Shown here piece by piece: positions 16,105-61,533 of a DNA stretch of 64,000 nt. A program made the translations under genes and the position numbers. The stretch is from Eledone cirrhosa. Taxonomy: Eukaryota. The stretch covers positions 36,642,001 through 36,706,000 of the forward strand of contig OZ024743.1 in assembly GCA_964016885.1 (NCBI GenBank), read 5' to 3'. The notes beneath the pieces are model-generated. The model did not search any database. It was not told where the DNA came from and saw nothing but the letters and a program-made list of their open reading frames with translations. Position 1 is the first letter of the stretch. Each line of letters opens with the position of its first letter.

Positions 16105-16150
<46 letters not shown>
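16105..16150. repeat. (GATA)n microsatellite
   Basis: Direct inspection; it abuts the 3' end of a Tx1-like fragment. Confidence 0.95.
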
Positions 16151-16740
16151 TGTTTCTTTATTAGCCACAGATGCACAAAAGAAGGGGACAAATACAAAGG
16201 GGGAAGTTTACATACAATAAAAATGTGTAAAATATTATCACAAATGCAATTGAAAAGTTAATCGATTTTCCCCAATAGGGAGAGACATTTCATATGGGTA
16301 ACACATACCCCCGAAAAAATGTGCCACCCTCATCTCCAGGAGTACGAAGAGTTTGTACCCCTTTCCTCTCTTCCTCCTTTTCCTCAACCTACAGGCTGAT
16401 ATAGAGAGAAGGCCCATTCACTCGGGCCATTCTCGCCACTTTCACCCACCTTTCATAAAACTTGCTGGGGTACAACACCTCTCTCTCCATCCTGATTCTT
16501 CTTCCAAAGTGGTATTTGAAAAAAAGAATCAGTTGTTGGCCGGAGAGAAAGGTGTCTGACCTCAGCCCCTTTAACCTCGTCCACCATACAATCTCTTTCG
16601 CCATAGCTATCACACAAAGAAAAACCGCCTCTCCTTCGTTTTTGAAGGGGGGTGGCAGTTTGATCGCGACAATGGACTCGGTGGTCAACCGGATTGGTCC
16701 CACCAGCGACAATAGTCGTTCTACATAGCCCCACAGGTCG
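16151..16740 (-). mobile_element. 5'-truncated Tx1-like non-LTR element (sister family B) in (GATA)n
   Basis: Encodes EGEAVFLCVIAMAKEIVWWTRLKGL..ERWVKVARMARVNGPSLYISL*, homologous to the array ORF2 C-terminus. Its 3' end ctgtggctaataaagaaac is followed by (ATCT)n. Confidence 0.85.
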
Positions 16741-16748
16741 AGATAGAT

Positions 16749-17003
16749 ATATTTCTTTATTTGCCACAAGGGCGCACAAGAAAAGGGGACAAAACAAAGA
16801 CACATGCCGGGGATTTTACATACAGTCGTGTAAAATATTGAAACAAACAAATTGAACAATCGAAATCCCCAACAGGGGTGAGGCGTCACAAATGGGTTGT
16901 TTAAAACCCCATCGATAGAACAACCCTCAACTTCAGGAGCGTGTTGTGCAAGTGCTCCTTTCTTCCTCTTGCTCTCTTCTTCAACCTACAGGTTTATATA
17001 CAG
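16749..17003 (-). mobile_element. Second, shorter 5'-truncated Tx1-like 3' stub stacked in the (GATA)n tract
   Basis: Last codons LYINL* plus 3' UTR ending cccttgtggcaaataaagaaat, then atatctatct; GATA-like repeats at 17001-17030. Confidence 0.75.
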
Positions 17004-17649
17004 ATAGGTAGTTGGATAAATAGATAGATAAATTGTATGCTGTTTATGTTATGTACACACACACACACACACACATAAACACACACATACACACATGCAC
17101 ACACACACACACATGCACACACACATACACACATGCACACACACGCACGCACACAGCGAAAACGTTTATACCCATATATAAGTGTATATATACAGACATA
17201 GATATCTATTAGTATAAAGATGCTGATGTTAATGCAGTATTGTTGTTGGTGTTATTGTAAGTAGTGGTTGCGGTGATGTAGGTTGTGTTGGTAGTAGGGG
17301 GAGGGCTGTGTTGGTAGTGGGTGGCGGGGTGATGATGGTTGCAGAACGCAGAACTTATATTGCTGTTTAATTCGATTATTTGATACCTTGGTGGGCCATT
17401 TCTACATCATTTCACATGTCATGCATAATTACTTCACAACCAATTACAACACTTCCTTCATAGTGTCAAACGTGTCTAGCTCATCTTTACAACGGTGCCC
17501 TTAGCACTCCACCGAACTGTCACTCTATTACACACACACACACATACATATATATACATATATATATACATATATATATATATATACAGACACACAGACA
17601 CACGCGCGTAGAATTTGAAAATATAGTCGCCACAATACAGATAATTATA

Positions 17650-21612: not shown

Positions 21613-21870
21613 ATATTGTTATACTTGGGGAGGATCATATTTGTGTAATAATATTGCCAGAATTAATAACAGAACACACTCACTGTTTGGTTGGTTTTCG
21701 CTTCTGTGTCTTTTATATCGGTAATTTAATTTATTCGGTCCTCAATGTTGCCATTGACTGACCAACGGTCAAAAATAATACAGATACAATATAGACACAA
21801 ACACATATATATAGTTTATCAAAGTTCTTTCGTTACACATCTGCAACATCGTCAGTGGTGCTATTGTTTC
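21613..21870 (-). repeat. Left inverted terminal repeat (3' pLTR) of the Penelope-like element, hammerhead core on the minus strand
   Basis: Reverse complement contains CTGACGA-tgttgcagatgtgtaac-GAAA-gaac-TT. Confidence 0.8.
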
Positions 21871-21899
21871 TGTTATGTATGTTGTTGTTATGTTTCTGC

Positions 21900-28497: not shown

Positions 28498-28738
28498 ACT
28501 GAGTATGTGTCTGTAAATTAAAGGTGGAAAACTGGGAGAGGGTACTTGCCCTGATGGTCAAGGTCACTGTGGCTTTTTAATGGGCTTTCTTCACGAATGT
28601 CCCTCGAAAGTATTGGGGAATTTTTCATTGTTATTTTTTTGTTACATCCTCTGTTTTTGTTTTTTTACACGTCCCGTATTGTCCTGTACTGTCCTTAATA
28701 TCTACTTTATGTAAACCCTTGTGGTTAATAAAGAAAGC
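28498..28738 (+). mobile_element. 5'-truncated, diverged 3' stub of the Tx1-like array family
   Basis: Matches 42893-43170 (taaaggtggaaaactgggagaggg..cccttgtggttaataaagaaa); followed by (ATT)n. Confidence 0.85.
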
Positions 28739-28752
28739 ATTATTATTATTAT

Positions 28753-28941
28753 AGGGTCACTGTGGTCTTTTAATGGGCTTTCTCCACAAATGTCCCTCGG
28801 AAGTCTCCCCCCTATTGGGGAATTTTTCTTTGTTATTTTATTACATCCTCTGTTTTTTACACGCAGAAATGCCCATTTGTACCGTCCTGTACTGTCCTTA
28901 ATGTCTACTTTATGTAAACCCTTGTGGTTAATAAAGAAAAA
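28753..28941 (+). mobile_element. Second 5'-truncated 3' stub of the Tx1-like array family
   Basis: Matches the 3' UTR from agggtca onward; followed by (ATT)n at 28942-28992. Confidence 0.85.
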
Positions 28942-37143: not shown

Positions 37144-37356
37144 GAATGCCATGGTTGACGGAGGTTCGGCTCTGTAAGGTATAGTAATTTTTAACCGTTA
37201 AAACAATTGTAAATTGTTTAAAACTTGAACCAAATTGTTGATAAAGACACCCTCCTCCTCGTGAGAGGGGTCTTTCTGTCCGTTATTTGGCCCTTCGGGG
37301 TTAAATAACCAGTTATTGGGGTTTTGTACCCAAAATTTCATTTTAAACAAAAAAAC

Positions 37357-39453
37357 ATGGCTACGAAAAAGAAATTTCATACGTCACTCCCACTCATTCC
37401 GTCTTCTTCTTCCTCAATCATCACTACAGCAGAGAGAAGATTGTCTCTCTCCCTCCCTTCTTTAAATGTGTCTCTCTCCCTCCCTTCTCTTTCGCAAGCG
37501 ACGAAAGAAAAGAAAAGTCTCGTGCAAAGCGTGCAAGGTTTCTCCACGACCACGACGACAGCGACGAAACAGGTGTGCGGGAAATACGAAAACCCAGTTC
37601 ATTCGTATGACGTTAGGAATAATAGCAGTAGCAGCCGTAATAACAACAGCAACAGTGACAATGAAAACAACAGTAGCAGCCGCAACAGCATCACCAGCAG
37701 CATAAACAACAACAGCATTAGCAGCAGCAACACCAACAACAACCACAGCAACAGCGGCGGAGGCAGTAGTCGTAGTACCTGCAGCAACAACAAAAGTACC
37801 AGCAGCTCTGACGACAACAACAACAGCAGAGAAAAACCAATCTCATTTGCAGGTATTGCGAAAAACTTGGAAACAATCCTCATAACAAATGAGGAATTAG
37901 AGGAAGCGAAGAAGATGGTTACAAAGAACGGACACCGAGCAATCTGCAAGGCAGCGAAAAATTTTTTCGGAACCCAAGAGCACTGTACGGTCACGTACCG
38001 TACAGTAAGTACAAAATCCCGTAGGGTGGAAAGAGCCACAGAGGCCCAAATACAAAAAGCCTTGGGGTCTGTGTGGCAGCGGAAAACGCACATCACCCGA
38101 GGCAAAAAATATGCCACCGTAGACGTACTTTTTGCCACACCCCAGGAGGCAAAGGCCCAATCAGTAGTGACCCTAAGGAGCGAGGAAATGGTGTTGGTGC
38201 CCTCCTACTGTGGGCAAAAAATTGTGAGGGTCAAACTGACCCACGTCCCCCCCGGAATGACCCCTTCTTGGCTGGCCGCGTCTGTCCTCGTCGGAATCGA
38301 GGACAAAACAACTGTACTGCAAGTACAGAAAAAAGTAAGAGAAGATTGGGTCGGCTCCTCCATTGAGATGCTAATCCAAACCAACCAGGAGTGCATCGAA
38401 GCTATCCCGGATGTGATAGACTTCGATAACGGCACTCAACTGCCCATAAGTGTTGAGGGCAAACGCCCGAAATGCTTTCGCTGTGGATCGAAGACTCACC
38501 TCAGGGCCTTCTGCAACGAGAAGACCCTGAGAAAGGAGAAAACCCCCCTCCTTCCGAATCCGGCTCCACGGCTACCAGCAACAGGACAAGCGGCAACCAG
38601 GAACGATAGGCCCGTGGCACCCATACCCACTCCACGGAAATCAAAAACAGCAGCAGCAGTGGAAATACTAACAACAACAACAGCAATACCAAATGCAGCT
38701 GCAACAGAGACTCCAGTGCAAACATCACCAACAACAACAAGTGAAAGAGTGGAGTTGGTACCCCTCCCCGACCTCACAGAATCAGACATGGAGTGTGAGG
38801 TGGGAGAGAGATGGCAAAAGGTCGTAAGAAGGCACAAACGCAGAAGCAGCGCATCGTCGCCTTTGAAAAGGGAGGAAAGAAATGAGAAAAGGGTAAAGTC
38901 TACTGCAAAGAGACCCACAGCAGCAACAACACCAACACCATCACCACCCACACTAGCGCCACCATCACCACCGGCGACAACCCCACCGCCAACAACACCT
39001 TCAACACCACCACCACAAGCACCAACATCGCAAACACAACAACAAAACACACACACCCAGCAACAACGACAAGAAAATAGCAGAACCACACCCCACCCCC
39101 AGAAAAACAAATGCACGGCAATAAATACACACAACAAGAAACTAATGACTTACATAATTGAACACACAGACATTTCACAACAGGACTACATAATACCAGC
39201 ACCAATCAAAACGCCAACTAACATAAGACTGCTAAAAATAGCACAGAAACAATACACAAACATTAAAACGAAATTCCCCAACGCAGTTGGTGATTTCAGG
39301 GACCTAGGAGGAACCATCAATCGAAGAGTATACTCAGACATTCTCTTAGAAGAGCCGACGACCAGCCGAAGGGACGATTCAACGGTCCCTTCACCAGACG
39401 ATCAAGTGAAAAGGGATGTAAAAACCATCCCTCCTCTACCAAAAGTACGGTAA
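37357..39453 (+). CDS. Tx1-like ORF1 (Gag-like, CCHC zinc knuckle), copy 1
   Basis: First ATG at 37357 (MATKKK); CFRCGSKTHLRAFC knuckle; N/S-rich and P/T-rich low-complexity tracts. Confidence 0.88.
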   Translation: MATKKKFHTSLPLIPSSSSSIITTAERRLSLSLPSLNVSLSLPSLSQATKEKKSLVQSVQGFSTTTTTATKQVCGKYENPVHSYDVRNNSSSSRNNNSNSDNENNSSSRNSITSSINNNSISSSNTNNNHSNSGGGSSRSTCSNNKSTSSSDDNNNSREKPISFAGIAKNLETILITNEELEEAKKMVTKNGHRAICKAAKNFFGTQEHCTVTYRTVSTKSRRVERATEAQIQKALGSVWQRKTHITRGKKYATVDVLFATPQEAKAQSVVTLRSEEMVLVPSYCGQKIVRVKLTHVPPGMTPSWLAASVLVGIEDKTTVLQVQKKVREDWVGSSIEMLIQTNQECIEAIPDVIDFDNGTQLPISVEGKRPKCFRCGSKTHLRAFCNEKTLRKEKTPLLPNPAPRLPATGQAATRNDRPVAPIPTPRKSKTAAAVEILTTTTAIPNAAATETPVQTSPTTTSERVELVPLPDLTESDMECEVGERWQKVVRRHKRRSSASSPLKREERNEKRVKSTAKRPTAATTPTPSPPTLAPPSPPATTPPPTTPSTPPPQAPTSQTQQQNTHTQQQRQENSRTTPHPQKNKCTAINTHNKKLMTYIIEHTDISQQDYIIPAPIKTPTNIRLLKIAQKQYTNIKTKFPNAVGDFRDLGGTINRRVYSDILLEEPTTSRRDDSTVPSPDDQVKRDVKTIPPLPKVR

Positions 39454-39488
39454 GTGGTCTTTCCCATCTTTTCCACTCTATTTTAAAC

Positions 39489-42400
39489 ATGACCTCACTC
39501 AGAATAGGCAGCATAAATGCGCGTGGCTTGGGATCGTCATGGAAGCAGGGTCACCTGCTCAACGACCTCAGGTCACTAAACATAGATGTAGTGGCCATCA
39601 GCGAGACCAGAATCTCCGAAGCACGGGCCTTCGTACCGATCTTCGGCGGCTACGATGTGTACGCATCTCCCAGCCGTCCTGGATCGGGTGGAGGAGTTGC
39701 TGTGCTTTTTCGGAGAGGTTTGGATCTCGCCATACGGGCCATCTTCCTGGACCCAGAGGGTAAGCTGGTGGTGCTGGACGTGACCAGCGGAGACGGGCAA
39801 GCTTTCAGGCTAGTGGCCGTCTATGCCCCGACAGGAGCAGGGCGGCCTGATTTCTTCCGGCGTCTGGAGACCTTTCTTGGAACGTCCCGCTCTTTAGTGT
39901 TAGTGGGCGACTGGAACGGGATCTTAGATGCACGCTGGGACTGTGTGGGATTAGCGGATAGGGGTGGAGGGTGCAAGAGCCTCACCAACCTGCTCAGGCG
40001 TTTTGAACTGTCTGACAGGTACCGATTGGATTTCCCGAATGTGCCAATGTGGACTTGGACAAACCGCATAGGGTCATCCAGATCATATCTAGATAGAGTA
40101 TTTTGTAGGGAAATAGATAGGTCTAGCATAGGCTGTCCACAATTCAAGATAGTCAGCTACACGGACCACAAATTCGTGATCTGTGTGCTTGACTTAGATA
40201 GGCTTCATAGACGAGGACCCGGCTACTGGAAGCTAAACGCGTCCTTACCAGCGCGCAAGGCCTACAGAGACCGGATTAGCGAACTAGTTAAGCGGGCGTT
40301 GACGGGGGCCATCGTCAACAACAAGTGGTGGTTTGCTCTGAAAAGAGCGATTAGAATAGAATCGATTAGGTTTAGTAAGGCTTTAGCAATAGAGAAAAAT
40401 AGAGCAGAGGGAGAACTAGTTAGAAAATTAGACGAGGCGCTTAGCAAAGGCATTGCGACCGACGTGCTTGCGGCGAAATTGGCCCTTGACCAATTCTTCA
40501 ATGCAAAGCACGAAGGCTGCGTTGTCAGAGCTAGGGTGCGTGCTCTCAGACACGAGGGGACGAAAGCCGTTCAATGGGCCCGAGTGGCGGAGGCGCGTCG
40601 TGGCAACAAAGCCACGATCCGGTCTTTGGTGGACCACGACGGGCGCATGCTACTCGATCCCGGGCAAATGTGTGAAGCTTTTCAGCGACACTTCGCTCAG
40701 CTGTTCGGGGGCAGCGGGGGGCCGGGTAGAGGGATGGACTTTAGTGTCTACCTCGACGGGCTGCCGCGGCTCTCGGCCACTGAGGCGAGGTGTTGCGAAA
40801 AGCCGATAACAGCCGCTGAAGTACGGGAGGCAATGACTGGCTGCACAAGGGGTAAATCGCCTGGTTTGGATGGTCTGCCCTATGAACTTTACGTACAGAT
40901 GCCAGACTTGTTCGGAGGCCTCTTGGCGGACGTCTACTGCAACTGGCAACAGAACGGGAGAATTCCCAGTTCTGTGAGCCGAGGAGCGGTGGCACTGCTG
41001 AGAAAGGATCCGAACAAGGGGGATAACATAGACAATTTCCGGCCCATAACTCTGCTAAACACAGAGTTTAAGATTTTGGCCAAGGTGCTAGCAAAGAGGT
41101 TGGCGCTTGTCGTTGGTGGTCTGGTGGGAGAGGCGCAGACATGCGCCATTCCCGACAGATCCATCCACGACAACCTCCACCTCATGCGATACATCGTAGA
41201 GAGGGTAGCTAGGGAACCTGGCACGGGTGGGTCCTTGATCAATTTAGATCAGTCGAAAGCTTTCGATAGGGTCGACCATCGTTACCTAGCGGCAGTCCTG
41301 AGGGCGGCTGGCTTTGGGCCCGTCTTCAGAGGCTGGATCGCTGCCATGCACAGCGACATCTGCTCTGTGGTGAGAGTGAACGGTCACCTGTCGGAACCGT
41401 TCAACATCATGCGCTCGGTCCGCCAAGGATGTCCCCTCTCGTCCCTCTTGTACGTATTGACTCTCGAGCCATTACTGCACAAACTGGAGACGTTGAGGGG
41501 AGTCCCGCGCGAACTAGGATGCGGAAGATCCGTGTCAGCATATGCGGACGATGTCACCGTAGTGGTGTCGAACGCCAAACACATCGAGGCGATCGGCACT
41601 ACACTAAGAGAATACGAAGCGGTGACAGGAGCAATGATCAACCAGGAAAAGTCAGTGGGCCTGCAGCTCGGCACCTGGAGAGGCAGGTCCATGCCGTCCA
41701 ACAGCGTCGTCGGGCGCTGGACGGACGGACCGGTTAAATTGCTAGGGGTCTGGTTCGGTCCGGACCTCCAGACGGACAAAAACTGGGACGAGGTGACGAG
41801 CAGGGTGGCTTCTCTCACCCAGAAATGGGCGGAGAGGAAGCTATCCCTGAAAGGTCGAGCGGAGGTGGCTAACGCGTACATCGCGTCTGTCATCTGCTAC
41901 CGCCTAACCGTCGTACCTTGTCCTAAGCCTCGCCTGACTGCGCTGGAGCGTTTGCTCTTTCGCTTTTTGTGGAAGGGACGTGCTCCGATGGTCAGGCGGT
42001 CCATCTGTTGTCAACACCCGCTACGTGGAGGGCTGGGCATGCCGTGGCTGATGATGCGCAGGCACGCGCTCAGGCTACGACATCTCCACCTCTTCCTCGA
42101 AGGTGATCAGGTGTGGTCGCCGTTTGCTAGACGCGTTTTTTCCCAGCTCGTTTCCTTGACGGAGCTGCAGTCCTGGGTCAAGCGAAGACCGAGAGGGAGC
42201 GCCTGGAGACTGGAATGTCTTCAGGCGCTCACAGCCCTCGACCAATCGGGCAATGTGATCGGTGGAAACTCCACCTCGGCGTTCTATAGAGGATTAGTGG
42301 AGGGGAAGAGCGACGACGTACTTGGGGAAACTCTAGGCGTCGACGAAAATCAACTAGCCAATCTCTTCGGAAGAACTTTCGGGCCAGGGCCTATGGACAA

Positions 42401-42908
42401 CTTCCAGAAATCTCTGGCCTGGCAGTGCTACCGAGGAGCCTTGCCAGTTCGGGATAAACTCTACAGGCATGGAGGTGCCGTCAGCCGGGCATGTCCGAGA
42501 TGCGCGCAGGGCGACGAAACCGTCCTGCACGCACTCGTCCAGTGTCCGAAAATTGCTGACTTGTGGGTTTATGTCGAACACCTGCTGTCGCGTTTAGGAC
42601 GGATCCAGCTATCATCTGAGTCCATCGTGAGGATTGCCCCGCCCTCCTCCTTTAGCCGGGAAGGGCAGGCAGTTTTTATCTGTCTGGTGGCCATGGCGAA
42701 AGAGATAGTATGGTGGACACGTTTGAAAGGGCTGAAGACGAGCACTTACCTCTTCGGTGATGCTCTGATTGACTTTTTCAAATTTCATTTGAAAAGGAAA
42801 ATCAGAGTAGAGAGGGAAGTGCTCTCTTCCCAGCATTTTGTTGAAAGATGGGTGAGAGAAGCAAGAATGGCCCGAGTGAATGGGCCGACTCTGAGTATAT
42901 ATCTGTAA
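39489..42908 (+). CDS. Tx1-like ORF2: APE endonuclease, RT, C-terminal CCHC (1139 aa), copy 1
   Basis: NARGL, SET, VYAP, GDWN, YLDR, TDH (APE); KSPGLDG, DQSKAFD, QGCPLS, YADD (RT); CPRC..ETVLHALVQC. Confidence 0.95.
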   Translation: MTSLRIGSINARGLGSSWKQGHLLNDLRSLNIDVVAISETRISEARAFVPIFGGYDVYASPSRPGSGGGVAVLFRRGLDLAIRAIFLDPEGKLVVLDVTSGDGQAFRLVAVYAPTGAGRPDFFRRLETFLGTSRSLVLVGDWNGILDARWDCVGLADRGGGCKSLTNLLRRFELSDRYRLDFPNVPMWTWTNRIGSSRSYLDRVFCREIDRSSIGCPQFKIVSYTDHKFVICVLDLDRLHRRGPGYWKLNASLPARKAYRDRISELVKRALTGAIVNNKWWFALKRAIRIESIRFSKALAIEKNRAEGELVRKLDEALSKGIATDVLAAKLALDQFFNAKHEGCVVRARVRALRHEGTKAVQWARVAEARRGNKATIRSLVDHDGRMLLDPGQMCEAFQRHFAQLFGGSGGPGRGMDFSVYLDGLPRLSATEARCCEKPITAAEVREAMTGCTRGKSPGLDGLPYELYVQMPDLFGGLLADVYCNWQQNGRIPSSVSRGAVALLRKDPNKGDNIDNFRPITLLNTEFKILAKVLAKRLALVVGGLVGEAQTCAIPDRSIHDNLHLMRYIVERVAREPGTGGSLINLDQSKAFDRVDHRYLAAVLRAAGFGPVFRGWIAAMHSDICSVVRVNGHLSEPFNIMRSVRQGCPLSSLLYVLTLEPLLHKLETLRGVPRELGCGRSVSAYADDVTVVVSNAKHIEAIGTTLREYEAVTGAMINQEKSVGLQLGTWRGRSMPSNSVVGRWTDGPVKLLGVWFGPDLQTDKNWDEVTSRVASLTQKWAERKLSLKGRAEVANAYIASVICYRLTVVPCPKPRLTALERLLFRFLWKGRAPMVRRSICCQHPLRGGLGMPWLMMRRHALRLRHLHLFLEGDQVWSPFARRVFSQLVSLTELQSWVKRRPRGSAWRLECLQALTALDQSGNVIGGNSTSAFYRGLVEGKSDDVLGETLGVDENQLANLFGRTFGPGPMDNFQKSLAWQCYRGALPVRDKLYRHGGAVSRACPRCAQGDETVLHALVQCPKIADLWVYVEHLLSRLGRIQLSSESIVRIAPPSSFSREGQAVFICLVAMAKEIVWWTRLKGLKTSTYLFGDALIDFFKFHLKRKIRVEREVLSSQHFVERWVREARMARVNGPTLSIYL

Positions 42909-43168
42909 ACTAAAGGTGGAAAACTGGGAGAGGGCACTTGCCTTGGTGGTCAGGGTCATTGTGGCTTTTTACTGGGCTTTCTCCACAAATGTCCCTCCGA
43001 AGTCTGCCCCCTATTGGGGAATTTTTCATTGTTATTTTCATTGTTATTTTTGTTACATCCTCTGTTTTTGTTTTTTTACACGCAGAAATGCCCATTTGTA
43101 CCGTCCTGCATTGTCCTGCACTGTCCTTAATGTCTACTTTATGTAAACCCTTGTGGTTAATAAAGAAA

Positions 43169-43203
<35 letters not shown>

Positions 43204-43416
43204 GAATGCCATGGTTGACGGAGGTTCGGCTCTGTAAGGTATAGTAATTTTTAACCGTTAAAACAATTGTAAATTGTTTAAAACTTGAACCAAATTGTTG
43301 ATAAAGACACCCTCCTCCTCGTGAGAGGGGTCTTTCTGTCCGTTATTTGGCCCTTCGGGGTTAAATAACCAGTTATTGGGGTTTTGTACCCAAAATTTCA
43401 TTTTAAACAAAAAAAC

Positions 43417-45513
43417 ATGGCTACGAAAAAGAAATTTCATACGTCACTCCCACTCATTCCGTCTTCTTCTTCCTCAATCATCACTACAGCAGAGAGAAGA
43501 TTGTCTCTCTCCCTCCCTTCTTTAAATGTGTCTCTCTCCCTCCCTTCTCTTTCGCAAGCGACGAAAGAAAAGAAAAGTCTCGTGCAAAGCGTGCAAGGTT
43601 TCTCCACGACCACGACGACAGCGACGAAACAGGTGTGCGGGAAATACGAAAACCCAGTTCATTCGTATGACGTTAGGAATAATAGCAGTAGCAGCCGTAA
43701 TAACAACAGCAACAGTGACAATGAAAACAACAGTAGCAGCCGCAACAGCATCACCAGCAGCATAAACAACAACAGCATTAGCAGCAGCAACACCAACAAC
43801 AACCACAGCAACAGCGGCGGAGGCAGTAGTCGTAGTACCTGCAGCAACAACAAAAGTACCAGCAGCTCTGACGACAACAACAACAGCAGAGAAAAACCAA
43901 TCTCATTTGCAGGTATTGCGAAAAACTTGGAAACAATCCTCATAACAAATGAGGAATTAGAGGAAGCGAAGAAGATGGTTACAAAGAACGGACACCGAGC
44001 AATCTGCAAGGCAGCGAAAAATTTTTTCGGAACCCAAGAGCACTGTACGGTCACGTACCGTACAGTAAGTACAAAATCCCGTAGGGTGGAAAGAGCCACA
44101 GAGGCCCAAATACAAAAAGCCTTGGGGTCTGTGTGGCAGCGGAAAACGCACATCACCCGAGGCAAAAAATATGCCACCGTAGACGTACTTTTTGCCACAC
44201 CCCAGGAGGCAAAGGCCCAATCAGTAGTGACCCTAAGGAGCGAGGAAATGGTGTTGGTGCCCTCCTACTGTGGGCAAAAAATTGTGAGGGTCAAACTGAC
44301 CCACGTCCCCCCCGGAATGACCCCTTCTTGGCTGGCCGCGTCTGTCCTCGTCGGAATCGAGGACAAAACAACTGTACTGCAAGTACAGAAAAAAGTAAGA
44401 GAAGATTGGGTCGGCTCCTCCATTGAGATGCTAATCCAAACCAACCAGGAGTGCATCGAAGCTATCCCGGATGTGATAGACTTCGATAACGGCACTCAAC
44501 TGCCCATAAGTGTTGAGGGCAAACGCCCGAAATGCTTTCGCTGTGGATCGAAGACTCACCTCAGGGCCTTCTGCAACGAGAAGACCCTGAGAAAGGAGAA
44601 AACCCCCCTCCTTCCGAATCCGGCTCCACGGCTACCAGCAACAGGACAAGCGGCAACCAGGAACGATAGGCCCGTGGCACCCATACCCACTCCACGGAAA
44701 TCAAAAACAGCAGCAGCAGTGGAAATACTAACAACAACAACAGCAATACCAAATGCAGCTGCAACAGAGACTCCAGTGCAAACATCACCAACAACAACAA
44801 GTGAAAGAGTGGAGTTGGTACCCCTCCCCGACCTCACAGAATCAGACATGGAGTGTGAGGTGGGAGAGAGATGGCAAAAGGTCGTAAGAAGGCACAAACG
44901 CAGAAGCAGCGCATCGTCGCCTTTGAAAAGGGAGGAAAGAAATGAGAAAAGGGTAAAGTCTACTGCAAAGAGACCCACAGCAGCAACAACACCAACACCA
45001 TCACCACCCACACTAGCGCCACCATCACCACCGGCGACAACCCCACCGCCAACAACACCTTCAACACCACCACCACAAGCACCAACATCGCAAACACAAC
45101 AACAAAACACACACACCCAGCAACAACGACAAGAAAATAGCAGAACCACACCCCACCCCCAGAAAAACAAATGCACGGCAATAAATACACACAACAAGAA
45201 ACTAATGACTTACATAATTGAACACACAGACATTTCACAACAGGACTACATAATACCAGCACCAATCAAAACGCCAACTAACATAAGACTGCTAAAAATA
45301 GCACAGAAACAATACACAAACATTAAAACGAAATTCCCCAACGCAGTTGGTGATTTCAGGGACCTAGGAGGAACCATCAATCGAAGAGTATACTCAGACA
45401 TTCTCTTAGAAGAGCCGACGACCAGCCGAAGGGACGATTCAACGGTCCCTTCACCAGACGATCAAGTGAAAAGGGATGTAAAAACCATCCCTCCTCTACC
45501 AAAAGTACGGTAA
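43417..45513 (+). CDS. Tx1-like ORF1, copy 2
   Basis: Translation identical to copy 1. Confidence 0.88.
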   Translation: MATKKKFHTSLPLIPSSSSSIITTAERRLSLSLPSLNVSLSLPSLSQATKEKKSLVQSVQGFSTTTTTATKQVCGKYENPVHSYDVRNNSSSSRNNNSNSDNENNSSSRNSITSSINNNSISSSNTNNNHSNSGGGSSRSTCSNNKSTSSSDDNNNSREKPISFAGIAKNLETILITNEELEEAKKMVTKNGHRAICKAAKNFFGTQEHCTVTYRTVSTKSRRVERATEAQIQKALGSVWQRKTHITRGKKYATVDVLFATPQEAKAQSVVTLRSEEMVLVPSYCGQKIVRVKLTHVPPGMTPSWLAASVLVGIEDKTTVLQVQKKVREDWVGSSIEMLIQTNQECIEAIPDVIDFDNGTQLPISVEGKRPKCFRCGSKTHLRAFCNEKTLRKEKTPLLPNPAPRLPATGQAATRNDRPVAPIPTPRKSKTAAAVEILTTTTAIPNAAATETPVQTSPTTTSERVELVPLPDLTESDMECEVGERWQKVVRRHKRRSSASSPLKREERNEKRVKSTAKRPTAATTPTPSPPTLAPPSPPATTPPPTTPSTPPPQAPTSQTQQQNTHTQQQRQENSRTTPHPQKNKCTAINTHNKKLMTYIIEHTDISQQDYIIPAPIKTPTNIRLLKIAQKQYTNIKTKFPNAVGDFRDLGGTINRRVYSDILLEEPTTSRRDDSTVPSPDDQVKRDVKTIPPLPKVR

Positions 45514-45548
45514 GTGGTCTTTCCCATCTTTTCCACTCTATTTTAAAC

Positions 45549-48500
45549 ATGACCTCACTCAGAATAGGCAGCATAAATGCGCGTGGCTTGGGATCGTCAT
45601 GGAAGCAGGGTCACCTGCTCAACGACCTCAGGTCACTAAACATAGATGTAGTGGCCATCAGCGAGACCAGAATCTCCGAAGCACGGGCCTTCGTACCGAT
45701 CTTCGGCGGCTACGATGTGTACGCATCTCCCAGCCGTCCTGGATCGGGTGGAGGAGTTGCTGTGCTTTTTCGGAGAGGTTTGGATCTCGCCATACGGGCC
45801 ATCTTCCTGGACCCAGAGGGTAAGCTGGTGGTGCTGGACGTGACCAGCGGAGACGGGCAAGCTTTCAGGCTAGTGGCCGTCTATGCCCCGACAGGAGCAG
45901 GGCGGCCTGATTTCTTCCGGCGTCTGGAGACCTTTCTTGGAACGTCCCGCTCTTTAGTGTTAGTGGGCGACTAGAACGGGATCTTAGATGCACGCTGGGA
46001 CTGTGTGGGATTAGCGGATAGGGGTGGAGGGTGCAAGAGCCTCACCAACCTGCTCAGGCGTTTTGAACTGTATGACAGGTACCGATTGGATTTCCCGAAT
46101 GTGCCAATGTGGACTTGGACAAACCGCATAGGGTCATCCAGATCATATCTAGATAGAGTATTTTGTAGGGAAATAGATAGGTCTAGCATAGGCTGTCCAC
46201 AATTCAAGATAGTCAGCTACACGGACCACAAATTCGTGATCTGTGTGCTTGACTTAGATAGGCTTCATAGACGAGGACCCGGCTACTGGAAGCTAAACGC
46301 GTCCTTACCAGCGCGCAAGGCCTACAGAGACCGGATTAGCGAACTAGTTAAGCGGGCGTTGACGGGGGCCATCGTCAACAACAAGTGGTGGTTTGCTCTG
46401 AAAAGAGCAATTAGAATAGAGTCCATTAGGTTTAGTAAGGCTTTAGCAATAGAGAAAAATAGAGCAGAGGGAGAACTAGTTAGAAAATTAGACGAGGCGC
46501 TTAGCAAAGGCATTGCGACCGACGTGCTTGCGGCGAAATTGGCCCTTGACCAATTCTTCAATGCAAAGCACGAAGGCTGCGTTGTCAGAGCTAGGGTGCG
46601 TGCTCTCAGACACGAGGGGACGAAAGCCGTTCAATGGGCCCGAGTGGCGGAGGCGCGTCGTGGCAACAAAGCCACGATCCGGTCTTTGGTGGACCACGAC
46701 GGGCGCATGCTACTCGATCCCGGGCAAATGTGTGAAGCTTTTCAGCGACACTTCGCTCAGCTGTTCGGGGGCAGCGGGGGGCCGGGTAGAGGGATGGACT
46801 TTAGTGTCTACCTCGACGGACTGCCGTGGCTCTCGGCCACTGAGGCGGAGTGTTGCGAAAAGCCGATAACAGCCGCTGAAGTAAGGGAGGCAATGACTGG
46901 CTGCACAAGGGGTAAATCGCCTGGTTTGGATGGTCTGCCCTATGAACTTTACGTACAGATGCCAGACTTGTTCGGAGGCCTCTTGGCGGACGTCTACTGC
47001 AACTGGCAACAGAACGGGAGAATTCCCAGTTCTGTGAGCCGAGGAGCGGTGGCACTGCTGAGAAAGGATCCGAACAAGGGGGATAACATAGACAATTTCC
47101 GGCCCATAACTCTGCTAAACACAGAGTTTAAGATTTTGGCCAAGGTGCTAGCAAAGAGGTTGGCGCTTGTCGTTGGTGGTCTGGTGGGAGAGGCGCAGAC
47201 ATGCGCCATTCCCGACAGATCCATCCACGACAACCTCCACCTCATGCGATACATCGTAGAGAGGGTAGCTAGGGAACCTGGCACGGGTGGGTCCTTGATC
47301 AATTTAGATCAGTCGAAAGCTTTCGATAGGGTCGACCATTGTTACCTAGCGGCAGTCCTGAGGGCGGCTGGCTTTGGGCCCGTCTTCAGAGGCTGGATCG
47401 CTGCCATGCACAGCGACATCTGCTCTGTGGTGAGAGTGAACGGTCACCTGTCGGAACCGTTCAACATCATGCGCTCGGTCCGCCAAGGATGTCCCCTCTC
47501 GTCCCTCTTGTACGTATTGACTCTCGAGCCATTACTGCACAAACTGGAGACGTTGAGGGGAGTCCCGCGCGAACTAGGATGCGGAAGATCCGTGTCAGCA
47601 TATGCGGACGATGTCACCGTAGTGGTGTCGAACGCCAAACACATCGAGGCGATCGGCACTACACTAAGAGAATACGAAGCAGTGACAGGAGCAATGATCA
47701 ACCAGGAAAAGTCAGTGGGCCTGCAGCTCGGCACCTGGAGAGGCAGGTCCATGCCGTCCAACAGCGTCGTCGGGCGCTGGACGGACGGACCGGTTAAATT
47801 GCTAGGGGTCTGGTTCGGTCCGGACCTCCAGACGGACAAAAACTGGGACGAGGTGACGAGCAGGGTGGCTTCTCTCACCCAGAAATGGGCGGAGAGGAAG
47901 CTATCCCTGAAAGGTCGAGCGGAGGTGGCTAACGCGTACATCGCGTCTGTCATCTGCTACCGCCTAACCGTCGTACCTTGTCCTAAGCCTCGCCTGACTG
48001 CGCTGGAGCGTTTGCTCTTTCGCTTTTTGTGGAAGGGACGTGCTCCGATGGTCAGGCGGTCCATCTGTTGTCAACACCCGCTACGTGGAGGGCTGGGCAT
48101 GCCGTGGCTGATGATGCGCAGGCACGCGCTCAGGCTACGACATCTCCACCTCTTCCTCGACGGTGATCAGGTGTGGTCGCCGTTTGCTAGACGCGTTTTT
48201 CCCCAGCTCGTTTCCTTGACGGAGCTGCAGTCCTGGGTCAAGCGAAGACCGAGAGGGAGCGCCTGGAGACTGGAATGTCTTCAGGCGCTCACAGCCCTCG
48301 ACCAATCGGGCAATGTGATCGGTGGAAACTCCACCTCGGCGTTCTATAGAGGATTAGTGGAGGGGAAGAGCGACGACGTACTTGGGGAAACTCTAGGCGT
48401 CGACGAAAATCAACTAGCCAATCTCTTCGGAAGAACCTTCGGGCCAGGGCCTATGGACAACTTCCAGAAATCTCTGGCCTGGCAGTGCTACCGAGGAGCC

Positions 48501-48968
48501 TTGCCAGTTCGGGATAAACTCTACAGGCATGGAGGTGCCGTCAGCCGGGCATGTCCGAGATGCGCGCAGGGCGACGAAACCGTCCTGCACGCACTCGTCC
48601 AGTGTCCGAAAATTGCTGACTTGTGGGTTTATGTCGAACACCTGCTGTCGCGTTTAGGACGGATCCAGCTATCATCTGAGTCTATCGTGAGGATTGCCCC
48701 GCCCTCCTCCTTTAGCCGGGAAGGGCAGGCAGTTTTTATCTGTCTGGTGGCCATGGCGAAAGAGATAGTATGGTGGACACGTTTGAAAGGGCTGAAGACG
48801 AGCACTTACCTCTTCGGTGATGCTCTGATTGACTTTTTCAAATTTCATTTGAAAAGGAAAATCAGAGTAGAGAAGGAAGTGCTCTCTTCCCAGCATTTTG
48901 TTGAAAGATGGGTGAGAGAAGCAAGAATGGCCCGAGTGAATGGGCCGACTCTGAGTATATATCTGTAA
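45549..48968 (+). pseudogene. Tx1-like ORF2 copy 2, interrupted by TGG>TAG at codon 142 in the APE domain
   Basis: Stop at 45972-45974; the rest is open in frame to 48968. Confidence 0.92.
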
Positions 48969-49229
48969 ACTAAAGGTGGAAAACTGGGAGAGGGCACTTG
49001 CCTTGGTGGTCAGGGTCATTGTGGCTTTTTACTGGGCTTTCTCCACAAATGTCCCTCCGAAGTCTCCCCCCTATTGGGGAATTTTTCATTGTTATTTTCA
49101 TTGTTATTTTTGTTACATCCTCTATTTTTGTTTTTTTTACACGCAGAAATGCCCATTTGTACCGTCCTGCATTGTCCTGCACTGTCCTTAATGTCTACTT
49201 TATGTAAACCCTTGTGGTTAATAAAGAAA

Positions 49230-49276
<47 letters not shown>

Positions 49277-49489
49277 GAATGCCATGGTTGACGGAGGTTC
49301 GGCTCTGTAAGGTATAGTAATTTTTAACCGTTAAAACAATTGTAAATTGTTTAAAACTTGAACCAAATTGTTGATAAAGACACCCTCCTCCTCGTGAGAG
49401 GGGTCTTTCTGTCCGTTATTTGGCCCTTCGGGGTTAAATAACCAGTTATTGGGGTTTTGTACCCAAAATTTCATTTTAAACAAAAAAAC

Positions 49490-51586
49490 ATGGCTACGAA
49501 AAAGAAATTTCATACGTCACTCCCACTCATTCCGTCTTCTTCTTCCTCAATCATCACTACAGCAGAGAGAAGATTGTCTCTCTCCCTCCCTTCTTTAAAT
49601 GTGTCTCTCTCCCTCCCTTCTCTTTCGCAAGCGACGAAAGAAAAGAAAAGTCTCGTGCAAAGCGTGCAAGGTTTCTCCACGACCACGACGACAGCGACGA
49701 AACAGGTGTGCGGGAAATACGAAAACCCAGTTCATTCGTATGACGTTAGGAATAATAGCAGTAGCAGCCGTAATAACAACAGCAACAGTGACAATGAAAA
49801 CAACAGTAGCAGCCGCAACAGCATCACCAGCAGCATAAACAACAACAGCATTAGCAGCAGCAACACCAACAACAACCACAGCAACAGCGGCGGAGGCAGT
49901 AGTCGTAGTACCTGCAGCAACAACAAAAGTACCAGCAGCTCTGACGACAACAACAACAGCAGAGAAAAACCAATCTCATTTGCAGGTATTGCGAAAAACT
50001 TGGAAACAATCCTCATAACAAATGAGGAATTAGAGGAAGCGAAGAAGATGGTTACAAAGAACGGACACCGAGCAATCTGCAAGGCAGCGAAAAAATTTTT
50101 CGGAACCCAAGAGCACTGTACGGTCACGTACCGTACAGTAAGTACAAAATCCCGTAGGGTGGAAAGAGCCACAGAGGCCCAAATACAAAAAGCCTTGGGG
50201 TCTGTGTGGCAGCGGAAAACGCACATCACCCGAGGCAAAAAATATGCCACCGTAGACGTACTTTTTGCCACACCCCAGGAGGCAAAGGCCCAATCAGTAG
50301 TGACCCTAAGGAGCGAGGAAATGGTGTTGGTGCCCTCCTACTGTGGGCAAAAAATTGTGAGGGTCAAACTGACCCACGTCCCCCCCGGAATGACCCCTTC
50401 TTGGCTGGCCGCGTCTGTCCTCGTCGGAATCGAGGACAAAACAACTGTACTGCAAGTACAGAAAAAAGTAAGAGAAGATTGGGTCGGCTCCTCCATTGAG
50501 ATGCTAATCCAAACCAACCAGGAGTGCATCGAAGCTATCCCGGATGTGATAGACTTCGATAACGGCACTCAACTGCCCATAAGTGTTGAGGGCAAACGCC
50601 CGAAATGCTTTCGCTGTGGATCGAAGACTCACCTCAGGGCCTTCTGCAACGAGAAGACCCTGAGAAAGGAGAAAACCCCCCTCCTTCCGAATCCGGCTCC
50701 ACGGCTACCAGCAACAGGACAAGCGGCAACCAGGAACGATAGGCCCGTGGCACCCATACCCACTCCACGGAAATCAAAAACAGCAGCAGCAGTGGAAATA
50801 CTAACAACAACAACAGCAATACCAAATGCAGCTGCAACAGAGACTCCAGTGCAAACATCACCAACAACAACAAGTGAAAGAGTGGAGTTGGTACCCCTCC
50901 CCGACCTCACAGAATCAGACATGGAGTGTGAGGTGGGAGAGAGATGGCAAAAGGTCGTAAGAAGGCACAAACGCAGAAGCAGCGCATCGTCGCCTTTGAA
51001 AAGGGAGGAAAGAAATGAGAAAAGGGTAAAGTCTACTGCAAAGAGACCCACAGCAGCAACAACACCAACACCATCACCACCCACACTAGCGCCACCATCA
51101 CCACCGGCGACAACCCCACCGCCAACAACACCTTCAACACCACCACCACAAGCACCAACATCGCAAACACAACAACAAAACACACACACCCAGCAACAAC
51201 GACAAGAAAATAGCAGAACCACACCCCACCCCCAGAAAAACAAATGCACGGCAATAAATACACACAACAAGAAACTAATGACTTACATAATTGAACACAC
51301 AGACATTTCACAACAGGACTACATAATACCAGCACCAATCAAAACGCCAACTAACATAAGACTGCTAAAAATAGCACAGAAACAATACACAAACATTAAA
51401 ACGAAATTCCCCAACGCAGTTGGTGATTTCAGGGACCTAGGAGGAACCATCAATCGAAGAGTATACTCAGACATTCTCTTAGAAGAGCCGACGACCAGCC
51501 GAAGGGACGATTCAACGGTCCCTTCACCAGACGATCAAGTGAAAAGGGATGTAAAAACCATCCCTCCTCTACCAAAAGTACGGTAA
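49490..51586 (+). CDS. Tx1-like ORF1, copy 3
   Basis: One visible substitution (AAKKFF vs AAKNFF). Confidence 0.88.
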   Translation: MATKKKFHTSLPLIPSSSSSIITTAERRLSLSLPSLNVSLSLPSLSQATKEKKSLVQSVQGFSTTTTTATKQVCGKYENPVHSYDVRNNSSSSRNNNSNSDNENNSSSRNSITSSINNNSISSSNTNNNHSNSGGGSSRSTCSNNKSTSSSDDNNNSREKPISFAGIAKNLETILITNEELEEAKKMVTKNGHRAICKAAKKFFGTQEHCTVTYRTVSTKSRRVERATEAQIQKALGSVWQRKTHITRGKKYATVDVLFATPQEAKAQSVVTLRSEEMVLVPSYCGQKIVRVKLTHVPPGMTPSWLAASVLVGIEDKTTVLQVQKKVREDWVGSSIEMLIQTNQECIEAIPDVIDFDNGTQLPISVEGKRPKCFRCGSKTHLRAFCNEKTLRKEKTPLLPNPAPRLPATGQAATRNDRPVAPIPTPRKSKTAAAVEILTTTTAIPNAAATETPVQTSPTTTSERVELVPLPDLTESDMECEVGERWQKVVRRHKRRSSASSPLKREERNEKRVKSTAKRPTAATTPTPSPPTLAPPSPPATTPPPTTPSTPPPQAPTSQTQQQNTHTQQQRQENSRTTPHPQKNKCTAINTHNKKLMTYIIEHTDISQQDYIIPAPIKTPTNIRLLKIAQKQYTNIKTKFPNAVGDFRDLGGTINRRVYSDILLEEPTTSRRDDSTVPSPDDQVKRDVKTIPPLPKVR

Positions 51587-51621
51587 GTGGTCTTTCCCAT
51601 CTTTTCCACTCTATTTTAAAC

Positions 51622-54600
51622 ATGACCTCACTCAGAATAGGCAGCATAAATGCGCGTGGCTTGGGATCGTCATGGAAGCAGGGTCACCTGCTCAACGACC
51701 TCAGGTCACTAAACATAGATGTAGTGGCCATCAGCGAGACCAGAATCTCCGAAGCACGGGCCTTCGTACCGATCTTCGGCGGCTACGATGTGTACGCATC
51801 TCCCAGCCGTCCTGGATCGGGTGGAGGAGTTGCTGTGCTTTTTCGGAGAGGTTTGGATCTCGCCATACGGGCCATCTTCCTGGACCCAGAGGGTAAGCTG
51901 GTGGTGCTGGACGTGACCAGCGGAGACGGGCAAGCTTTCAGGCTAGTGGCCGTCTATGCCCCGACAGGAGCAGGGCGGCCTGATTTCTTCCGGCGTCTGG
52001 AGACCTTTCTTGGAACGTCCCGCTCTTTAGTGTTAGTGGGCGACTGGAACGGGATCTTAGATGCACGCTGGGACTGTGTGGGATTAGCGGATAGGGGTGG
52101 AGGGTGCAAGAGCCTCACCAACCTGCTCAGGCGTTTTGAACTGTCTGACAGGTACCGATTGGATTTCCCGAATGTGCCAATGTGGACTTGGACAAACCGC
52201 ATAGGGTCATCCAGATCATATCTAGATAGAGTATTTTGTAGGGAAATAGATAGGTCTAGCATAGGCTGTCCACAATTCAAGATAGTCAGCTACACGGACC
52301 ACAAATTCGTGACCTGTGTGCTTGACTTAGATAGGCTTCATAGACGAGGACCCGGCTACTGGAAGCTAAACGCGTCCTTACCAGCGCGCAAGGCCTACAG
52401 AGACCGGATTAGCGAACTAGTTAAGCGGGCGTTGACGGGGGCCATCGTCAACAACAAGTGGTGGTTTGCTCTGAAAAGAGCGATTAGAATAGAATCGATT
52501 AGGTTTAGTAAGGCTTTAGCAATAGAGAAAAATAGAGCAGAGGGAGAACTAGTTAGAAAATTAGACGAGGCGCTTAGCAAAGGCATTGCGACCGACGTGC
52601 TTGCGGCGAAATTGGCCCTTGACCAATTCTTCAATGCAAAGCACGAAGGCTGCGTTGTCAGAGCTAGGGTGCGTGCTCTCAGACACGAGGGGACGAAAGC
52701 CGTTCAATGGGCCCGAGTGGCGGAGGCGCGTCGTGGCAACAAAGCCACGATCCGGTCTTTGGTGGACCACGACGGGCGCATGCTACTCGATCCCGGGCAA
52801 ATGTGTGAAGCTTTTCAGCGACACTTCGCTCAGCTGTTCGGGGGCAGCGGGGGGCCGGGTAGAGGGATGGACTTTAGTGTCTACCTCGACGGGCTGCCGC
52901 GGCTCTCGGCCACTGAGGCGAGGTGTTGCGAAAAGCCGATAACAGCCGCTGAAGTACGGGAGGCAATGACTGGCTGCACAAGGGGTAAATCGCCTGGTTT
53001 GGATGGTCTGCCCTATGAACTTTACGTACAGATGCCAGACTTGTTCGGAGGCCTCTTGGCGGACGTCTACTGCAACTGGCAACAGAACGGGAGAATTCCC
53101 AGTTCTGTGAGCCGAGGAGCGGTGGCACTGCTGAGAAAGGATCCGAACAAGGGGGATAACATAGACAATTTCCGGCCCATAACTCTGCTAAACACAGAGT
53201 TTAAGATTTTGGCCAAGGTGCTAGCAAAGAGGTTGGCGCTTGTCGTTGGTGGTCTGGTGGGAGAGGCGCAGACATGCGCCATTCCCGACAGATCCATCCA
53301 CGACAACCTCCACCTCATGCGATACATCGTAGAGAGGGTAGCTAGGGAACCTGGCACGGGTGGGTCCTTGATCAATTTAGATCAGTCGAAAGCTTTCGAT
53401 AGGGTCGACCATCGTTACCTAGCGGCAGTCCTGAGGGCGGCTGGCTTTGGGCCCGTCTTCAGAGGCTGGATCGCTGCCATGCACAGCGACATCTGCTCTG
53501 TGGTGAGAGTGAACGGTCACCTGTCGGAACCGTTCAACATCATGCGCTCGGTCCGCCAAGGATGTCCCCTCTCGTCCCTCTTGTACGTATTGACTCTCGA
53601 GCCATTACTGCACAAACTGGAGACGTTGAGGGGAGTCCCGCGCGAACTAGGATGCGGAAGATCCGTGTCAGCATATGCGGACGATGTCACCGTAGTGGTG
53701 TCGAACGCCAAACACATCGAGGCGATCGGCACTACACTAAGAGAATACGAAGCGGTGACAGGAGCAATGATCAACCAGGAAAAGTCAGTGGGCCTGCAGC
53801 TCGGCACCTGGAGAGGCAGGTCCATGCCGTCCAACAGCGTCGTCGGGCGCTGGACGGACGGACCGGTTAAATTGCTAGGGGTCTGGTTCGGTCCGGACCT
53901 CCAGACGGACAAAAACTGGGACGAGGTGACGAGCAGGGTGGCTTCTCTCACCCAGAAATGGGCGGAGAGGAAGCTATCCCTGAAAGGTCGAGCGGAGGTG
54001 GCTAACGCGTACATCGCGTCTGTCATCTGCTACCGCCTAACCGTCGTACCTTGTCCTAAGCCTCGCCTGACTGCGCTGGAGCGTTTGCTCTTTCGCTTTT
54101 TGTGGAAGGGACGTGCTCCGATGGTCAGGCGGTCCATCTGTTGTCAACACCCGCTACGTGGAGGGCTGGGCATGCCGTGGCTGATGATGCGCAGGCACGC
54201 GCTCAGGCTACGACATCTCCACCTCTTCCTCGACGGTGATCAGGTGTGGTCGCCGTTTGCTAGACGCGTTTTTCCCCAGCTCGTTTCCTTGACGGAGCTG
54301 CAGTCCTGGGTCAAGCGAAGACCGAGAGGGAGCGCCTGGAGACTGGAATGTCTTCAGGCGCTCACAGCCCTCGACCAATCGGGCAATGTGATCGGTGGAA
54401 ACTCCACCTCGGCGTTCTATAGAGGATTAGTGGAGGGGAAGAGCGACGACGTACTTGGGGAAACTCTAGGCGTCGACGAAAATCAACTAGCCAATCTCTT
54501 CGGAAGAACTTTCGGGCCAGGGCCTATGGACAACTTCCAGAAATCTCTGGCCTGGCAGTGCTACCGAGGAGCCTTGCCAGTTCGGGATAAACTCTACAGG

Positions 54601-55041
54601 CATGGAGGTGCCGTCAGCCGGGCATGTCCGAGATGCGCGCAGGGCGACGAAACCGTCCTGCACGCACTCGTCCAGTGTCCGAAAATTGCTGACTTGTGGG
54701 TTTATGTCGAACACCTGCTGTCGCGTTTAGGACGGATCCAGCTATCATCTGAGTCTATCGTGAGGATTGCCCCGCCCTCCTCCTTTAGCCGGGAAGGGCA
54801 GGCAGTTTTTATCTGTCTGGTGGCCATGGCGAAAGAGATAGTATGGTGGACACGTTTGAAAGGGCTGAAGACGAGCACTTACCTCTTCGGTGATGCTCTG
54901 ATTGACTTTTTCAAATTTCATTTGAAAAGGAAAATCAGAGTAGAGAAGGAAGTGCTCTCTTCCCAGCATTTTGTTGAAAGATGGGTGAGAGAAGCAAGAA
55001 TGGCCCGAGTGAATGGGCCGACTCTGAGTATATATCTGTAA
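51622..55041 (+). CDS. Tx1-like ORF2 (APE, RT, CCHC; 1139 aa), copy 3, intact
   Basis: Same motifs as copy 1, no stop. Confidence 0.95.
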   Translation: MTSLRIGSINARGLGSSWKQGHLLNDLRSLNIDVVAISETRISEARAFVPIFGGYDVYASPSRPGSGGGVAVLFRRGLDLAIRAIFLDPEGKLVVLDVTSGDGQAFRLVAVYAPTGAGRPDFFRRLETFLGTSRSLVLVGDWNGILDARWDCVGLADRGGGCKSLTNLLRRFELSDRYRLDFPNVPMWTWTNRIGSSRSYLDRVFCREIDRSSIGCPQFKIVSYTDHKFVTCVLDLDRLHRRGPGYWKLNASLPARKAYRDRISELVKRALTGAIVNNKWWFALKRAIRIESIRFSKALAIEKNRAEGELVRKLDEALSKGIATDVLAAKLALDQFFNAKHEGCVVRARVRALRHEGTKAVQWARVAEARRGNKATIRSLVDHDGRMLLDPGQMCEAFQRHFAQLFGGSGGPGRGMDFSVYLDGLPRLSATEARCCEKPITAAEVREAMTGCTRGKSPGLDGLPYELYVQMPDLFGGLLADVYCNWQQNGRIPSSVSRGAVALLRKDPNKGDNIDNFRPITLLNTEFKILAKVLAKRLALVVGGLVGEAQTCAIPDRSIHDNLHLMRYIVERVAREPGTGGSLINLDQSKAFDRVDHRYLAAVLRAAGFGPVFRGWIAAMHSDICSVVRVNGHLSEPFNIMRSVRQGCPLSSLLYVLTLEPLLHKLETLRGVPRELGCGRSVSAYADDVTVVVSNAKHIEAIGTTLREYEAVTGAMINQEKSVGLQLGTWRGRSMPSNSVVGRWTDGPVKLLGVWFGPDLQTDKNWDEVTSRVASLTQKWAERKLSLKGRAEVANAYIASVICYRLTVVPCPKPRLTALERLLFRFLWKGRAPMVRRSICCQHPLRGGLGMPWLMMRRHALRLRHLHLFLDGDQVWSPFARRVFPQLVSLTELQSWVKRRPRGSAWRLECLQALTALDQSGNVIGGNSTSAFYRGLVEGKSDDVLGETLGVDENQLANLFGRTFGPGPMDNFQKSLAWQCYRGALPVRDKLYRHGGAVSRACPRCAQGDETVLHALVQCPKIADLWVYVEHLLSRLGRIQLSSESIVRIAPPSSFSREGQAVFICLVAMAKEIVWWTRLKGLKTSTYLFGDALIDFFKFHLKRKIRVEKEVLSSQHFVERWVREARMARVNGPTLSIYL

Positions 55042-55432
55042 ACTAAAGGTGGAAAACTGGGAGAGGGCACTTGCCTTGGTGGTCAGGGTCATTGTGGCTT
55101 TTTACTGGGCTTTCTCCACAAATGTCCCTCCGAAGTCTCCCCCCTATTGGGGAATTTTTCATTGTTATTTTCATTGTTATTTTTGTTACATCCTCTGTTT
55201 TTGTTTTTTTACACGCAGAAATGCCCATTTGTACCGTCCTGCATTGTCCTGCACTGTCCTTAATGTCTACTTTATGTAAACCCTTGTGGTTAATAAAGAA
55301 ATCATTGTTATTTTTGTTACATCCTCTGTTTTTGTTTTTTTACACGCAGAAATGCCCATTTGTACCGTCCTGCATTGTCCTGCACTGTCCTTAATGTCTA
55401 CTTTATGTAAACCCTTGTGGTTAATAAAGAAA

Positions 55433-55467
<35 letters not shown>

Positions 55468-55680
55468 GAATGCCATGGTTGACGGAGGTTCGGCTCTGTA
55501 AGGTATAGTAATTTTTAACCGTTAAAACAATTGTAAATTGTTTAAAACTTGAACCAAATTGTTGATAAAGACACCCTCCTCCTCGTGAGAGGGGTCTTTC
55601 TGTCCGTTATTTGGCCCTTCGGGGTTAAATAACCAGTTATTGGGGTTTTGTACCCAAAATTTCATTTTAAACAAAAAAAC

Positions 55681-57777: not shown

Positions 57778-57812
57778 GTGGTCTTTCCCATCTTTTCCAC
57801 TCTATTTTAAAC

Positions 57813-60800: not shown

Positions 60801-61232
60801 GCCGTCAGCCGGGCATGTCCGAGATGCGCGCAGGGCGACGAAACCGTCCTGCACGCACTCGTCCAGTGTCCGAAAATTGCTGACTTGTGGGTTTATGTCG
60901 AACACCTGCTGTCGCGTTTAGGACGGATCCAGTTATCATCTGAGTCTATCGTGAGGATTGCCCCGCCCTCCTCCTTTAGCCGGGAAGGGCAGGCAGTTTT
61001 TATCTGTCTGGTGGCCATGGCGAAAGAGATAGTATGGTGGACACGTTTGAAAGGGCTGAAGACGAGCACTTACCTCTTCGGTGATGCTCTGATTGACTTT
61101 TTCAAATTTCATTTGAAAAGGAAAATCAGAGTAGAGAAGGAAGTGCTCTCTTCCCAGCATTTTGTTGAAAGATGGGTGAGAGAAGCAAGAATGGCCCGAG
61201 TGAATGGGCCGACTCTGAGTATATATCTGTAA
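57813..61232 (+). pseudogene. Tx1-like ORF2 copy 4, interrupted by the same TGG>TAG stop
   Basis: Stop at 58236-58238. Confidence 0.92.
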
Positions 61233-61492
61233 ACTAAAGGTGGAAAACTGGGAGAGGGCACTTGCCTTGGTGGTCAGGGTCATTGTGGCTTTTTACTGGG
61301 CTTTCTCCACAAATGTCTCTCCGAAGTCTCCCCCCTATTGGGGAATTTTTCATTGTTATTTTCATTGTTATTTTTGTTACATCCTCTGTTTTTGTTTTTT
61401 TACACGCAGAAATGCCCATTTGTACCGTCCTGCATTGTCCTGCACTGTCCTTAATGTCTACTTTATGTAAACCCTTGTGGTTAATAAAGAAA

Positions 61493-61533
<41 letters not shown>

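Follow-up and report, generated by a model that had tools for sequence, protein, structure and literature searches.

Related Tx1-like LINE lineages of octopods have diverged in the microsatellite that they inhabit, and a single stretch of the Eledone cirrhosa genome (64,000 nucleotides of microsatellite-rich animal DNA, which we call the window) holds one locus from each side of that divergence. One lineage, family A, is associated with (ATT)n; the other, family B, is related to it yet, as judged by sequence comparison, distinct from it within the octopod Tx1 radiation, and lies in (ATCT)n, i.e. in GATA repeats when the opposite strand is read. We regard this target divergence as a real case, seen in the window at one locus per family, and the GATA repeat at the B locus looks like a target for insertion and not merely a tail.

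The B locus occupies the minus strand, where two 5'-truncated Tx1-type LINE copies, B1 and B2, stand head-to-tail, with (ATCT)n at either end of the pair and between its members. In the direction of the elements, the locus opens with a degenerate (ATCT)7 (17002..17029, 24 of 28 bases matching), which forms the 5' flank of B1; B1 itself (16749..17004) comprises the last ~6 ORF2 codons, a stop, a 3' UTR of ~240 nt, a terminal hairpin and AATAAAGAAA. An (ATCT)2 (16741..16748) separates it from B2, whose coding part (16389..16740) supplies 116 C-terminal ORF2 residues and is 5'-truncated at 16740, whose 3' UTR and terminus follow (16150..16388), and whose 3' flank is a perfect (ATCT)11 without poly(A) (16106..16149). 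Beyond both termini the sequence runs on as C/T-AT-(ATCT)n. The last TCT of the (ATCT)7 tract is common to the tract and to the start of B1 (17002-17004), likely a 3-nt overlap of the kind left at a microhomology junction, and inspection by eye revealed no target-site duplication outside the repeats at this locus. The sequence-only reading of this DNA had proposed two stacked truncated copies, both retaining the ORF2 C-terminus; the two copies are there, but the C-terminus (AMAKEIVWW..ARMARVNGP) is found in B2 only (16740-16150), B1 starting about six codons ahead of the ORF2 stop, and tblastn returns a single C-terminal match.

Are these ends genuine, and how young are the copies? At the 5' end of B2 (16739), 170 contigs of run X1 carry on with further ORF2 sequence (X1 and X2 are assemblies of two other organisms), which marks B2 as truly truncated there; in relatives of B1, the contig pieces stop at 17004. 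The 3' UTRs of B1 and B2 are 76% identical over aligned columns, and the two copies therefore represent two subfamilies, not one young family. In runs of related organisms, each B copy has many close matches and several apparently private changes among the 40 of 473 matches listed, for which reason B1 and B2 look like older insertions. Between 16405 and 16455, loose ends in X5, X1 and X2 belong to at least one further related family with another ORF2 end and UTR.

The 64-kb window contains 9 instances of the terminus TGTGG-NN-AATAAAGAA, where 0.04 would be expected; two are at the B locus and seven in family A, older copies included, which bears out the earlier claim that the 3' terminus is homologous to that of the family A array. 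The UTRs of B1 and B2 are homologous to the A UTR (z 8.6-9.3), and B2 is 64% identical to A at the protein level and 68% at the DNA level over 116 codons. In a 116-residue tree of 12 rows, obtained from a 23-row tree by dropping 11 rows that were shorter, redundant or more diverged, A, B2 and four relatives form one clade (100/99) against an outgroup at ~40%. Inside this clade the order is a polytomy, and a forced A+B pairing is not rejected (AU p=0.21); at the C-terminus, the relatives P0001, P0121 and P0122 match A at 75-76% identity, as against 64% for B2. In other words, of the "sister" families and the target "switch" first proposed, the common lineage stands, while neither the sister pairing, with other relatives nearer to A than B is, nor a switch in a given direction is established; B is homologous to A as claimed but consists of two subfamilies. 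Near the ORF2 end, ~22 nt of coding DNA (16408-16429, minus strand) are identical in B2 and the A units, which are 68% alike overall, and an RNA-level constraint possibly acts there.

Family A forms an array of head-to-tail repeats (37144..64000, plus strand) with four full units of ~6.03 kb and one cut by the window end, (ATT)11-16 standing before each. Its layout is that of Tx1-type elements, with an ORF1 and an ORF2 (39489..42908, plus strand; 1139 aa) in which Pfam recognizes an N-terminal APE, an RT and a C-terminal zinc finger. The ORF2 scores 326 bits (29% identity) against Xenopus Tx1L (P0092) and 181 bits against human L1 ORF2p, phmmer values that come from two different databases and express similarity only; on such similarity, family A may be filed with Tx1. 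The best named match of the array ORF2 is an Argonauta hians protein (69%). Two older 5'-truncated A copies (28499..28941, plus strand), 92-94% identical to an array unit and to each other, have (ATT)n on both sides. (ATT)n comes directly after six of the seven A-type termini, the other one being internal to a UTR duplication, so that the reported contrast between (ATCT)n after B and (ATT)n after the array element is confirmed. This duplication, 131 bp in tandem, affects the last part of the 3' UTR of unit 3 (55171-55450) and gives that unit two termini.

The array units alternate (37144-61494): units 1 and 3 have 7 differences and units 2 and 4 have 9, comparisons across these pairs give 16-20, and unit 5 is distinct. 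Units 2 and 4 have a common stop in the APE region, and units 1 and 3 have an intact ORF2. Units 3-4 are likely a DNA-level copy of units 1-2, made by a two-unit duplication, and the A copies therefore amount to about five events at one locus, not seven; a reading of the five array units as five independent insertions was rejected in view of the pairwise differences. The region 27440-64000 as a whole is one 36-kb (ATT)n nest that contains a SINE (plus strand), three R4/Dong-like elements (minus strand; one fragment and two with open frames of 1141 and 1216 residues) and, in the opposite orientation to the latter, two old and five young A copies (plus strand). The data suggest that ATT and GATA tracts are insertion hotspots in octopod genomes.

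What would send A to one repeat and B to another? We lean toward a mechanism in which the endonuclease leads and annealing of the RNA reinforces its choice, and we favor it over RNA-led targeting. The ORF2 protein would grip its RNA via the terminal hairpin; the APE would nick the purine-rich strand at 5'-AT/A-3', as AAT/AAT for A and as AGAT/AGAT for B; the bases around the AT/A core, likely read by a variable betaB6-betaB5 loop, would decide between ATT and ATCT; and the RNA would probably strengthen the choice by annealing to the primer with its last few repeat bases. Every insertion leaves repeat on both sides, and copies therefore stack. The nick is placed at AT/A because A, old A and B all allow a reading in which the repeat after the element begins with AT, the register of a nick being ambiguous inside a repeat. 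The hairpin, of four pairs with a C/T-T/C-TGT loop, lies directly ahead of AATAAAG in both A and B and has an equivalent in the local SINE; chosen by eye and followed through six related sequences, it has 20 of 24 cells paired, 3 of its 4 pairs altered on both sides and a covariation score that 0 of 500 shuffles reach, and its folding energy is unremarkable (z -0.2 to -1.5). SINE 3' ends with a Tx1-like terminal hairpin are located at 8234, 9422, 15545, 15746, 17675, 19527, 19813 and 27589; seven of the eight continue with ATTAT and none with (ATCT)n, and these SINEs were likely moved by family A-type proteins. For the specificity loop, alignment to the L1-EN loop-graft structures 2v0s/2v0r predicts residues 190-198 of A. 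Of the 7 relatives that cover the loop tip, 6 depart from A there, with nearly fixed anchors; on 5 sequences, 10 of 195 windows, this tip among them, are equally variable. According to PMC1950540, Tx1L-EN is sequence-specific and grafts of the betaB6-betaB5 loop alter nicking, but specificity does not move along with the graft as a module.

Could the RNA pick the target instead? Both endonucleases might nick AT/A loosely, with the repeat at the RNA 3' end selecting the site by primer pairing; that end repeat could come from read-through of the last landing site or from slippage, and a change of tail would then retarget an element without any change of protein. We consider this possible, if rather unlikely. 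It agrees with the finding that 8 of 8 repeat-flanked termini have no poly(A) between element and repeat, and with the AT/A core common to both targets; moreover, the literature describes target-like RNA ends that anneal in SART1 and R1Bm (PMC7265360) and mentions, for L1, that base pairing may help to determine the site as well (PMC1950540). However, PMC4494074 assigns the leading role in target choice to the endonuclease for this group, the betaB6-betaB5 loop varies among close relatives, and abundant (AT)n (2,486 position-strands in 1-27,400) is without a Tx1 copy; one SINE end runs into (AT)n. That octopod Tx1 elements, with a shared AT/A core and hairpin, retarget mainly via the repeat bases at the RNA 3' end, i.e. 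by RNA-programmed landing, strikes us as distinctly doubtful.

It is likely that B1 and B2 entered, by target-primed reverse transcription, a GATA microsatellite that was already in place. Contigs of the other assemblies speak for this: past the B1 terminus, X1 reads as GATA repeats in 184 contigs (agreement 0.54) and X2 in 9 (0.98), although among the 24 of 1,635 loose ends listed, none lies at the B1 terminus in X13 or in the best-matching X5. The opposing account, which we judge very improbable, is that B inserts without preference and makes its own GATA tail, a single template jump having produced the stack and the repeat ahead of B1 being there by chance. In favor of that account, the B2 5' flank is just two units long, GATA tracts are present elsewhere in the window, and the contigs of X1 and X2 report 3' ends only. 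The 5' flank of B1 argues against it; it cannot be a Tx1 tail because it follows no Tx1 end, it is more decayed (4 of 28 mismatches) than the perfect 3' (ATCT)11, and, of the 54,746 position-strands that 1-27,400 offers apart from the finding itself, 46 have an (ATCT)7-like tract, for a local chance of about 8e-4. A read joint in X13 (51 reads, 3 starts), in which a truncation at 16519 is joined to GATA-like DNA, is probably a second locus, with the proviso that at such likeness repeats alone can yield joints. Another X13 joint, 16762-17002 (47 reads), was set aside, as it includes only about 14 nt of element.

Repeats 5' of the element are seen in family A as well. All seven A 5' junctions are in (ATT)n, all in one nest, and two of these tracts adjoin the 5' end of an R4/Dong-like element, which makes them nobody's tail; (ATT)4 is found at 0 of 54,778 position-strands in 1-27,400. 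The repeat is present 5' of B1, of the first old A copy and of array unit 1, i.e. not just as a tail, and each motif is constant across diverged copies (B1 and B2, 76%; old and young A, 93%). A family is called microsatellite-specific in PMC4494074, as excerpted, if >20% of its copies are flanked by one motif; the counts in the window, from one locus each, are 2 of 2 for B and 7 of 7 for A-type copies. The sequence-only reading named two refuting conditions, random 5' flanks of B and equal use of both motifs by both families; within the window, on one locus per family, both checks went in its favor, and the proposal that related families use different motifs is supported. That a single promiscuous lineage inserts into any T-rich microsatellite, the A/B split being a small-sample effect, is extremely improbable; each family has one locus and A tails are known from this window only, but none of the 9 copies in the window sits on the motif of the other family (ATT holds neither of the 2 B copies, and ATCT none of the 7 A-type copies), and no ATT entry for B appears among the 24 of 1,635 loose ends listed.

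The principle that related Tx1 families occupy different microsatellites is already known; the (ATT)n and (ATCT)n targets were not found in print. Outside Tx1, Waldo and Mino belong to the R1 clade; like A and B, these elements and SART1/TRAS1 are related APE elements with different repeat targets, and they differ in clade (R1) and in host (insects). Waldo targets (ACAY)n and Mino (AC)n according to a passage of PMC3812793, and SART1/TRAS1 provide a precedent for annealing between RNA and target in the portion available of PMC7265360. Nearer at hand are Kibi on (TC)n and Koshi on (TTC)n of teleosts, and crocodilian Tx1 on (TTCC)n/(TTTC)n (passages of PMC4494074 and PMC3812793), which are also Tx1-type APE-RT LINEs with related families on different microsatellites. 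Unlike these, A and B have (ATT)n and (ATCT)n as targets, an octopod host and no poly(A) seen at the junctions; neither is in a (TC)n or (TTC)n target of the Kibi/Koshi type, a comparison of target descriptions. Xenopus Tx1L, nearer by score to the family A ORF2 than human L1 ORF2p is, differs in having the Tx1D transposon, and no microsatellite, as its target (PMC4494074). Dong, (TAA)n-specific in an excerpt of PMC3812793, has the same microsatellite as family A, and R4/Dong-like copies lie inside the A nest; it differs in the opposite orientation of these copies and in belonging to a restriction-like endonuclease clade (R4, from a passage of PMC4640811), its placement in R4 following the Dong-R4 label in part of PMC13282606. 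The microsatellite targets listed in the excerpt of PMC3812793 are ACAY, AC, TC, TTC and TAA, with GATA absent from that list; L1-Tx1 is listed as recently active in octopus, with no targets given, in the excerpt of PMC13282606; and the available portion of another octopus paper (PMC9115989) does not mention Tx1. We found no description in the literature of an ATT- or GATA-targeting cephalopod Tx1; Repbase, Dfam and Kojima & Fujiwara 2004 may list such targets.

How APE retrotransposons came to target microsatellites is, in the words available from PMC3812793, not well understood, and A and B plausibly provide a putative natural experiment for APE specificity, as had been suggested. A young A and a ~64%-alike relative, whose targets are one inserted base apart per unit (AAT versus AGAT), would form a compact pair for tests that tell endonuclease from RNA determinants, given an intact B, and for the engineering of site-specific integration. 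A long B protein with an endonuclease was not found in the window or in protein collections, where the best matches stand at 68-70%. Searches for close relatives gave 0 loci by C-terminal alignment in metagenome and viral contigs and, by RT alignment, 5 metagenome loci at 25-35%, with 0 in prokaryote genomes and 0 in plasmids. One of the metagenome relatives (L001, 35% identity) has a 3' end in which AATAAA is followed by a few A-rich bases and then by (TC)n, where the contig stops; this resembles the Kibi target.

Elsewhere in the window, a 414-residue frame on the minus strand (22117-23361) has a weak RT match and, by its motifs, looks Penelope-like. Near-perfect palindromes or long inverted repeats, 95-99% identical, are found at 6501-6891, 2121-2450 and 21613-23863, and these are probably MITE-like.
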